Below are positions 10,747-12,299 of a stretch of DNA of 64,000 bases, one piece after another (positions within the stretch are counted from its first letter, which is position 1; each line of letters opens with the position of its first letter). This DNA comes from Octopus vulgaris. Taxonomy: Eukaryota. The notes beneath the pieces were generated by a model. That model saw only the letters and a program-made list of their open reading frames with translations, made no database searches and was not told the origin of the DNA. The position numbers and the translations under genes were made by a program. Location: assembly GCA_951406725.2 (NCBI GenBank), contig OX597816.1, forward strand, positions 103,726,001-103,790,000, given 5' to 3'.

Positions 10747-10942
10747 CAGTTCTATATTTAAGAGATGAGGAATTATGTACATTATTTACATTTGACGGAT
10801 ATTTATCCTCATCTTGTTTGTTGTTAACACAGCATTTTGGCTGATGTACCCTCCAGCCTTCTTCAGGTGTCATGGGGAAATTTCGAACCTGTGTTCTCAT
10901 TTTTCGATGTTGTTGTTGTTGTTATTATTATTATCATTATTA

Positions 10943-10974
<32 letters not shown>

Positions 10975-11880
10975 GTTGTTGTTGTTAGTGTTCAGGTCAC
11001 TGCTTGGCATCGAACTCAGAATCTTGGGGTTAGTAACTTGCGCTCTTAACCACTACACTATATGCCCGTGGGCAATTATGGAGTGAATTTTAGGGCTTAT
11101 AAATCTAATATTTTTCTATCCTTCCTTAATACCCTATGTGAAAGGCCTCTCCAAAAAGATACAAAAGATGTGCAGCCCATATGACATCAGGATAGCATTC
11201 AAGAGCAATACAACACTTTGCAAATATCTCCTTCGAGTAAAACCTCTAATAGAAGAGAATATGACCAAAGACTGCGTGTACTCCATCCCATGCAGCTGTG
11301 GTAGGTTATACAAAGGCAAAACATGCTGCCCCTCAAAATAAGGGTAGACAAACATCACAAAGCTGTGACACAAGGAGATATTGATAAATCGAGTATAGCT
11401 GATCATGTATGGAAAAATGGAGACCATCTCCCCCTGTGGGATGAAGTTAAAATAATAGACAGGGAACACCACTGGAAAATACGAAAACTAAAAGAAGCAG
11501 CACATATACTAGGACACAAGAACCTCCTAAGAGGACCGAGTGCTGATATGAATAGCATATGGGAATCGGTATTAAGTAAGGATAGAAAAATATTAGATTT
11601 ATAAGCCCTAAAATTCACTCTATAATTACCCATCGGCATATGGTGTAGTGGTTAAGAGCGCAGGCTACTAACCCCAAGATTCCGAGTTTGATTCCAAGCA
11701 GTGACCTGAACACTAATAATAATAATAATAATGAAATCAAAAAATATCTTAGGGATAAGATCCCAGGTTCGAAATTTCCCCAAGACACCTGAAGAAGGCT
11801 GCAGGGTATATCAGCCGAAATGTGTTAACAACAAACAAGATGACAAATATCTGTCAAATGTAAATAATGTAAATAATGTA
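10747..11880 (+). mobile_element. 5'-truncated Penelope-like element with GIY-YIG domain and inverted pseudo-LTR
   Basis: PYVKGLSKKI...CVYSIPCSCGRLYKG..RVDKH...SSIADH...RKLKEA. The segment 10747-11132 is an inverted copy of 11568-11880. A 12-bp TSD ATAATTGTTTTG lies at 10735-10746 and 11880-11891. Confidence 0.9.
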
Positions 11881-12299
11881 TAATTGTTTTGGTATAACAA
11901 ATTACTCTGCAAGTTTACTCTAATTCTCTAAAATTATTCCCCCACTCTGCTAGATTAAAAACTGAAAATTACTGTATGAAATCTTTGAGCGAGATGTAAA
12001 CAGTAGCAATACATAATTGTCAACCAAGTGTGGCATCATATATGTGTGTGGGGAGGGGGAACAGTACTACTGACGTTTATAGCCCTGTCATCCTGGGCTA
12101 TACATGTCAGTAGCACTATGTCTCCACTATCCGTATGGGACATCACACTTGGTTGGCAATTATATGAAAATTACTCTTTGACTCACCCCATGTCCAGAAA
12201 AACCCATATCAAATTTTAATACATTGGCTAGAGAATAGCTGACCTACATACAATGTAAATATGGTAGTACTGCTGACCTATATTTGTGACTGTCCCTCC

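Follow-up and report, generated by a model that had tools for sequence, protein, structure and literature searches.

A tRNA-derived head in the pLTR of a coding Penelope family of Octopus vulgaris: a putative captured Pol III promoter at the 5' end of SINE-like copies

Introduction

What does a tRNA-derived sequence do in the pLTR (pseudo-LTR) of a Penelope-like element (PLE), just upstream of its hammerhead motif? The question is raised by a stretch of 64,000 nucleotides of the Octopus vulgaris genome (assembly GCA_951406725.2, contig OX597816.1, positions 103,726,001 to 103,790,000 of the forward strand), here called the window, in which such heads occur three times. By definition, SINEs are Pol III-transcribed passengers of LINEs. 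An earlier note, made from the letters of the window, had proposed that a Pol III promoter and a self-cleaving ribozyme in one unit could give a Pol III-driven, ribozyme-processed RNA, either as a Penelope-dependent SINE or from a captured promoter, and its author knew of no described example.

Minimal hammerheads occur in pLTRs (PMC4209133), animal retrozymes have been proposed to be non-autonomous Penelope derivatives (bioRxiv 10.64898/2026.07.22.740005; PMC7229834), and 893 unclassified, recently active SINE families are reported from Octopus vulgaris (PMC13282606).

Results

The window copies and their host element

The window contains the unit at 11635-11883 (+), accompanied by an inverted arm (10747-11133, -), and a second insertion of it spans 49956-50451 (Table 1). 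All three tRNA-like heads on which the earlier note had built its proposal were found in their places, the two on the minus strand being 92% (10989-11066) and 87% (50166-50241) identical to the one on the plus strand, and the A and B boxes that it had read in the latter were recognized as well. The ORF stop lies 30 nt upstream of this head. All three copies are decayed; that at 11635 has GTTTGA in its B box, a mutated start codon and a loss of 3 nt after the GAAA of the hammerhead. The word that had been noticed as a 'second GGTTCGAA' is present at 11766-11773, within the segment of linker and predicted ORF start, but it sits in the first ORF codons and nothing indicates a B-box role for it.

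Table 1. Features of the window that are discussed in the text (positions in the window, position 1 being its first letter).
Feature	Positions	Strand	Remarks
Inverted partner arm	10747..11133	-	ORF 3' end and 3'UTR 11067-11133, then head 10989-11066, AAT array, hammerhead motif 10826-10871, ORF N-terminus, long 3' end at 10747
C-terminal endonuclease-type region of Penelope ORF	11134..11604	+	5'-truncated, broken; stop 11602-11604; 53% identity to P0019 C-terminus
Short 3'UTR	11605..11634	+	final ~20 nt form an imperfect inverted head start, hairpin-capable (about -12 kcal/mol where copies are better kept)
tRNA-derived head	about 11635..11712	+	tRNA-Arg best match; A box 11641-11651, B box 11684-11695 (decayed here)
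(AAT)n array	about 11709..11733	+	length variable between copies
Linker and predicted ORF start	11734..11783	+	ATG mutated here, at about 11755-11757
Minimal type I hammerhead motif	11784..11826	+	within ORF reading frame; 3 nt missing after GAAA here; architecture as in PMC4209133
ORF N-terminal codons up to short 3' end	11827..11883	+	predicted RT start site 1
Independent head-start (SINE-like) arm	49956..50250	-	head 50166-50241, AAT array, hammerhead motif 50011-50056, short 3' end
Inverted partner of the 49956..50250 arm	50262..50451	+	linker, hammerhead motif 50318-50363, long 3' end at 50451
Pieces of other Penelope-like ORFs	5958-6903; 9264-10080	-; +	
Inverted repeat	15378-15853		96%, 135-nt arms; near-perfect hairpin 15570-15661
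Young headless Penelope-like family	20536-21579	-	copies 99% identical; intact 750-780-codon ORFs elsewhere in genome; served as control
Full-length U6 snRNA-like copies	39280-39393; 55942-56042	+; -	probably pseudogenes (Rfam 91 and 85 bits)
RTE-type LINE ORF, near-intact	57826-62861	-	1029 codons; 3' segment inverted

The host element is a coding one. Its near-full-length but broken copy L142 matches RVT_1 (E=5.8e-8), and the RT ORF of the family has 72 homologues, up to 69% identical. The C-terminal region in the window has a counterpart in L142 and aligns with relatives that carry PF01541, such as P0066, with the Pfam GIY-YIG model reaching only E=0.23 in the full-length relative P0019 and giving no match in L142. 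From 3'UTR onward the element runs through the head, the (AAT)n array and an ORF frame with the hammerhead motif inside it to two fixed 3' ends; a pLTR repeat of 5'UTR and ORF start after the ORF, with tandem or inverted arms, is present in the family. Across the hammerhead and beyond it, the sequence can be read as the N-terminus of the ORF, starting from an ATG ahead of the motif, and it is similar to the beginning of P0019. Among 30 loci picked by their ORF 3' end, one of them the window itself, 26 carry the head directly behind the ORF. Taken together, the head behind the ORF and the ORF N-terminus across the hammerhead identify the unit as a true pLTR, composed of UTR and ORF start, and bear out the view that the head is a component of the family and not a later insertion.

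From this architecture we infer membership of the Penelope/Poseidon clade; a quick, unfinished tree of 93 rows contained no named reference element. A strict hammerhead core was found in 81 of 254 arms, 77 of these 81 having at least four of five stem II pairs and 44 having the palindromic AACGTT. At five loci (L222, L227, L228, L246 and L249) the first 300-500 nt of the ORF are fused directly to a pLTR tail, making short partial tandems.

Identity and abundance of the head

Pattern searches covered 2.8 Gb in 227 contigs. A 25-nt pattern from the head had 2,803 exact matches and a 28-nt pattern running into the hammerhead had 3,354, with none for either reversed-pattern control, so the head is real and not a product of chance. 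The adjacent UTR pattern matched exactly 754 times genome-wide and, scaled by the match rates of the two patterns (22/47 for the UTR, 20/71 for the head), these counts give a very rough estimate of ~10,000 heads, of which ~1,600 belong to linked arms.

With each of the three heads that were compared, tRNA-Arg (TCT or TCG) scored highest within a set of 27 distinct tRNA genes of this genome that represents six isotypes only, and an HMM built from 12 of these genes matched a family head with E=3.8e-5. ARAGORN called no tRNA genes in the window, and Rfam matched neither a tRNA nor a hammerhead in the window or in one family pLTR. Over 166 arms the column majorities are canonical A and B boxes. 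Mismatch in the same 166 arms amounts to 7.7% in the A box, 6.7% in the B box and 8.3% in the spacer between them, so that no extra conservation of the boxes was seen among inserted copies; box mismatch close to the spacer level is expected under neutral decay and gives no sign of selection. The family is old, standing 5-8% from its column majorities.

Near the head, the last 20 nt of the 3'UTR, in the window (11612-11652) and in family copies, resemble a decayed inverted head start, a likeness that hints at capture of the head through a fold-back event. The (AAT)n arrays of several loci (L118, L133, L164, L167, L189 and L202; L111, L125, L183, L193 and L224; L141) are interrupted by other repeats. 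The interruptions are the 3' ends of at least two such repeats, one of which we take to be a Dong/R4-type LINE.

Most heads mark a fixed 5' end

The tail-anchored sample was drawn from contig C1 and comprised the 100 listed matches of the hammerhead-side pattern, taken by position. Sixty-five arms reach the head; the other 35, which end in the array or linker or have another repeat within the array, were left out. After removal of one duplicate, and with six ends that fold-back had lengthened reset by hand from -15/-18 to -8, 64 arms remained. Of these, 15 end within the head (+6..+64), 38 at -8..+5, none at -25..-9 and 11 further upstream, which means that 38 of the 49 arms passing +5 end at -8..+5. 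The end rate there is 7.8% per nt against a background of 0.38% per nt, a roughly 21-fold difference, for which the Poisson P of 3e-36 is overstated because the arms are not fully independent. A smaller cluster of 7-8 ends lies at +6..+20, near the base of a hairpin that is taken up in the Discussion.

In the head-anchored sample, 24 of 30 position-ordered head matches had no UTR, and three of the six linked ones look like duplicates. Head-start arms, with their fixed 5' end, account for about four fifths of heads. The headless control family from the same genome gave no pile-up, with at most 2 of 30 ends (9 censored) in any 14-nt window. One contig of X14 spans the UTR-head junction (533-691); a depth step at the head in four contig sets was not counted as evidence, because contigs show neither starts nor levels. 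Among the 11 ORF-linked arms, five (L135, L156, L173, L176 and L181) have 5' ends at -398 to -449 of the head, a possible second zone of preferred truncation.

Short copies bear Penelope insertion marks

The 3' ends of the copies form two groups, one at about 120-140 nt and one at about 170 nt past the ATG, in 102 of the 110 head-start arms that have a tail and in 34 of 42 linked arms. Of 51 loci with both orientations, 34 have the long end on exactly one arm and one has it on both, while in 16 it was undetected. Two 3' ends, with the long one on one arm, are the same arrangement as the PLE 'tail' (PMC8557442; PMC11167929), and the two fixed 3' ends and the inverted partner arm indicate that the short copies are Penelope-made.

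A separate SINE subfamily was not found. Comparison of 47 ORF-linked with 119 head-start arms gave no diagnostic column: none of the 79 columns of the head or the 232 of the tail reached P<0.001, the lowest head-column P being 0.006, at an A-box CpG, and tail divergence is 5.3% in both classes; by these measures short and ORF-linked copies appear to be one sequence population. An inverted loop variant, CGTG, occurs in 7/119 head-start and 1/47 linked arms. Six solo copies (L002, L013, L023, L072, L215 and L218) have target duplications of 6-16 nt, judged by eye, and a shared word of at least 9 nt was seen in only three of 44 flank-joined arms (control 99th percentile, 7). Neither a regular target-site duplication nor a LINE-type 3' tail is present, the 3' end being the Penelope ORF start. 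The unit is SINE-like at its 5' end and Penelope-like at its 3' end, and does not behave as an independent SINE family.

Copies run across the predicted cleavage site

The earlier note had suggested that a ribozyme-processed RNA could arise, and ribozyme-cut templates were considered as a source of 5' ends. The copies run across the predicted cut site, and ends near it are no commoner than in neighbouring stretches (7 ends in 2,768 nt at risk, 290 arms), so that this part of the proposal was abandoned. The result agrees with the anole element PAc, in which uncleaved RNA is the main template (PMC11167929). Cleavage of a head-started RNA would separate the head from the priming sites. The arms are dispersed, single or inverted, and the layout of a tandem non-coding repeat was not seen. 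Self-cleavage can promote translation that does not depend on a cap (PMC13725137), which may be relevant to the translation of an uncapped RNA, although in this family the predicted ATG precedes the cut site.

Terminator runs, TATA words and a second tRNA-like head

L142 has a 2,348-nt sense strand free of TTTT, where shuffles have a mean of 4.8. In 60.7 kb of aligned copies TTTT occurs 18 times and AAAA 856 times, with no TTTT common to more than three of 26 copies; 11 long copies, examined over their whole length for a TTTT hidden in ORF stretches that L142 lacks, have seven scattered runs in 18.2 kb, two of them at one place. By comparison, the headless control family has 8-10 TTTT per full ORF, and metagenomic relatives of similar T content have a mean of 2.85 per kb (67 of 79 relatives, duplicates and short matches left out). 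Against synonymous shuffles the absence of TTTT is not significant (P=0.065), and two of 40 relatives of at least 1.5 kb likewise have none. Low Phe content was dropped as a sign of terminator avoidance, being common to close relatives.

A second possible case was met in L312, a metagenome contig with a tandem Penelope-like element that falls in the same 96%-supported group as the octopus family in the quick, unfinished tree. At 2823-3020 it has a tRNA-like A/B-box stretch, with an insert of about 12-16 nt, upstream of the hammerhead. Its A/B-box matrix score is 21.4, within the range of the family (19.3-27.5) and well apart from the next relative (7.2) and the shuffle maximum (7.5); it is the only such case in 21 relative pLTR regions. 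We take this head to resemble an intron-bearing tRNA-Tyr. It is followed by CCA and AAT triplets, the frame of 900 codons is open, and each 2.8-kb unit has two TTTT, both just after the hammerhead. nhmmer aligned only the 3' half of the head (E=2.5), Rfam matched neither a tRNA nor a hammerhead in the L312 pLTR, a search of the octopus genome with the L312 head gave no match, and ARAGORN at a lowered threshold returned only noise on the metagenome loci.

A TATA pattern 15-70 nt before the hammerhead is present in six of 18 relative loci and in none of 33 family arms. In many related pLTRs (L315, L317, L318, L319, L322, L329, L342 and L381) a TATA box lies about 40-50 nt ahead of the hammerhead and CCAAT-like words are present as well, which is the classical Pol II layout. 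A clean division into relatives with CCAAT and TATA and a family with neither is only partly true, given the six of 18 and a TATA-like word in L312 itself, 47 nt before its hammerhead; with that word retained, the L312 head may be a passive insertion. A missing TATA is in any case a weak argument, because the Penelope of D. virilis has a LINE-like, TATA-less internal promoter (PMC2377424).

Discussion

Most sampled copies begin at the head, which suggests promoter capture together with the production of SINE-like short copies. Judging from where the copies begin and end, we think it probable that the head serves as a captured Pol III promoter and so fixes where the RNA begins, and that the RT of the element, priming within the ORF start, copies back to this point; the captured-promoter half of the original proposal fits the pile-up at the head. 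In a master element, with the pLTR joined to the ORF, Pol III would start about 7-8 nt before the head. The element RT would then bind and prime inside the first ~120-170 nt of the ORF, as RT binding and priming inside the ORF start have been shown in vitro for PAc (PMC11167929), and would copy back to the RNA 5' end, giving SINE-like copies of ~300 nt for which neither a tail nor a terminator nor ribozyme cleavage would be needed. Longer, ORF-bearing copies that are randomly truncated would result when the RT primes at the following pLTR of a tandem master. Inserted short copies would likely be without the ORF sequence past the priming sites and so would be dead ends, which fits the absence of a separate subfamily.

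As the main alternative, the same pile-up could arise if the head were a passive SINE or tRNA fossil in the UTR, with the RNA made by Pol II read-through or as ribozyme-made circles and the ends set by RT stalling or cDNA fold-back at a hairpin. Base pairing between the final 20 nt of the UTR and the start of the head gives a site at which RT could stall or fold back; the hairpin at this junction, about -20..+17, folds at about -12 kcal/mol in six of eight copies, and 19 of the 119 head-start arms carry an inverted head from the head start, with 22 more joined to an internal inverted head. Hairpin and inverted heads make a structural cause of the pile-up possible, and the small cluster at +6..+20, the boxes without extra conservation and the lack of a separate subfamily would suit it too. 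We nevertheless consider this explanation unlikely, as ends gather at the loop and on the 5' side of the hairpin, whereas a stalling RT should leave them at its 3' base, none falls in the 5' arm, 100 of the 119 arms have no fold-back copy of the head start, and most arms join a tail arm or flanking DNA with no fold-back. The canonical column-majority boxes, and the occurrence of a tRNA-like stretch at the equivalent place in a second related element, count against it as well.

Two further explanations treat the head-start copies as SINEs in their own right. In one, which the earlier note had raised, the short copies would themselves serve as Pol III masters and would be moved in trans by the protein of the Penelope element. 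Their large share of all heads, the solo copies that resemble classical SINE insertions and the frequency of the CGTG variant speak for it, but the shared sequence population of short and ORF-linked copies speaks against it, as does the minimal template of PAc, which extends past the second priming site (PMC11167929) into a part that the short copies would lack; we regard such a lineage as improbable. The other, a free-standing tRNA SINE inserted into a minority of Penelope copies, is the least probable of all, to the point of being hardly credible. Head and (AAT)n do look like a simple SINE, which is a plausible origin of the head, and nine of the 119 head-start arms have no tail within 830 nt. 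Most of these nine, however, have a long array, a locus edge or a partial linker, with up to four that may be head and array only, the remaining 110 having the Penelope tail; no close head joined to a different body was seen among 263 HMM matches in 1.0 Mb of loci that are biased to this family, and the head stands behind the ORF in 26 of the 30 ORF-picked loci. For the family in its present state, the free-standing SINE is largely refuted.

Beyond a captured promoter that sets the 5' end, the entire coding element could be a Pol III unit, its Pol II promoter swapped for a tRNA promoter, its 2.3-kb sense strand free of TTTT and its SINE-like copies a by-product. From the sequences at hand we hold this to be a doubtful extension, though one deserving mention. 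Given the different tRNA-like head of L312, such a swap may have happened more than once in the subclade.

Several known systems share parts of this arrangement. With canonical EN+ PLEs such as the D. virilis Penelope and the Poseidon element PAc of Anolis carolinensis, the octopus family shares the ORF with RT and C-terminal endonuclease-type region, the pLTR composed of UTR and ORF start, the minimal hammerhead over the ORF start, 3' ends 30-50 nt apart, the inverted partner arm and an apparently uncleaved RNA template (PMC11167929). It differs from them in the tRNA-derived A/B-box head of its pLTR, the described PLE promoters being TATA-less and internal (PMC2377424), and in the fixed 5' end where they have random truncation. 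The SM-alpha and Sj-alpha repeats of Schistosoma likewise combine, within a single short unit, a Pol III-type promoter and a type I hammerhead downstream of it; SM-alpha is non-coding and often tandem, with a ribozyme active in vitro (PMC6765202, PMC8490949), whereas the octopus unit is the pLTR of a coding element, has a minimal hammerhead inside a reading frame and leaves copies without cut ends. The TRIMp3 elements Cassandra, Helenus and Ajax have a small-RNA-derived Pol III promoter, a tRNA or 5S head, in their terminal repeat, for which a SINE insertion there is the proposed origin, but they are non-autonomous, non-coding LTR elements with two direct LTRs and PBS/PPT, and the autonomous partners of TRIMs are stated to require Pol II (PMC10886601); in the octopus the head belongs to a coding Penelope family. 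Non-LTR retrozymes are non-coding hammerhead units related to Penelope pLTRs and proposed users of Penelope proteins, which occur as head-to-tail tandems and as circular RNAs (PMC7229834; bioRxiv 10.64898/2026.07.22.740005), unlike the dispersed, single or inverted octopus copies. In the available text, the words 'tRNA', 'Pol III' and 'promoter' are absent from the bioRxiv article, and 'polymerase III' and 'SINE' from PMC7229834.

The remark that no example had been described holds in part. A Pol III promoter with a hammerhead is known from SM-alpha (PMC6765202) and tRNA heads in LTRs are known from Helenus (PMC10886601), but a tRNA head in a Penelope pLTR was not found in the literature searched, a scope outside which Repbase, Dfam, SINEBase, subscription journals and supplements may hold the family. 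What appears to be new is a Pol III-type head inside an autonomous coding retroelement, of which we found no description in that literature.

In octopus, tRNA-derived SINEs named OR1, OR2 and OK were reportedly described by Ohshima and Okada in 1994. Like tRNA-derived SINEs in general, the unit described here has a tRNA head, a 5' end a few nt before the head, a short body and an occasional target duplication. It differs in that its 3' part is a Penelope ORF start and not a LINE tail, and in forming no separate subfamily.

Pol III heads in terminal repeats have been described for non-autonomous elements (PMC10886601), and here such a head is part of the coding Penelope family itself. In practice, its head-start copies would be annotated as an unclassified SINE. 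If the head is a promoter, it shows how a Penelope whose RT primes internally can produce SINE-like copies of fixed length that need neither tail nor terminator, on a scale of about 10,000 heads by our rough estimate, and it offers a route to elements like SM-alpha and the retrozymes. It also makes testable the idea that the ORF of a retrotransposon can be carried on a Pol III transcript.
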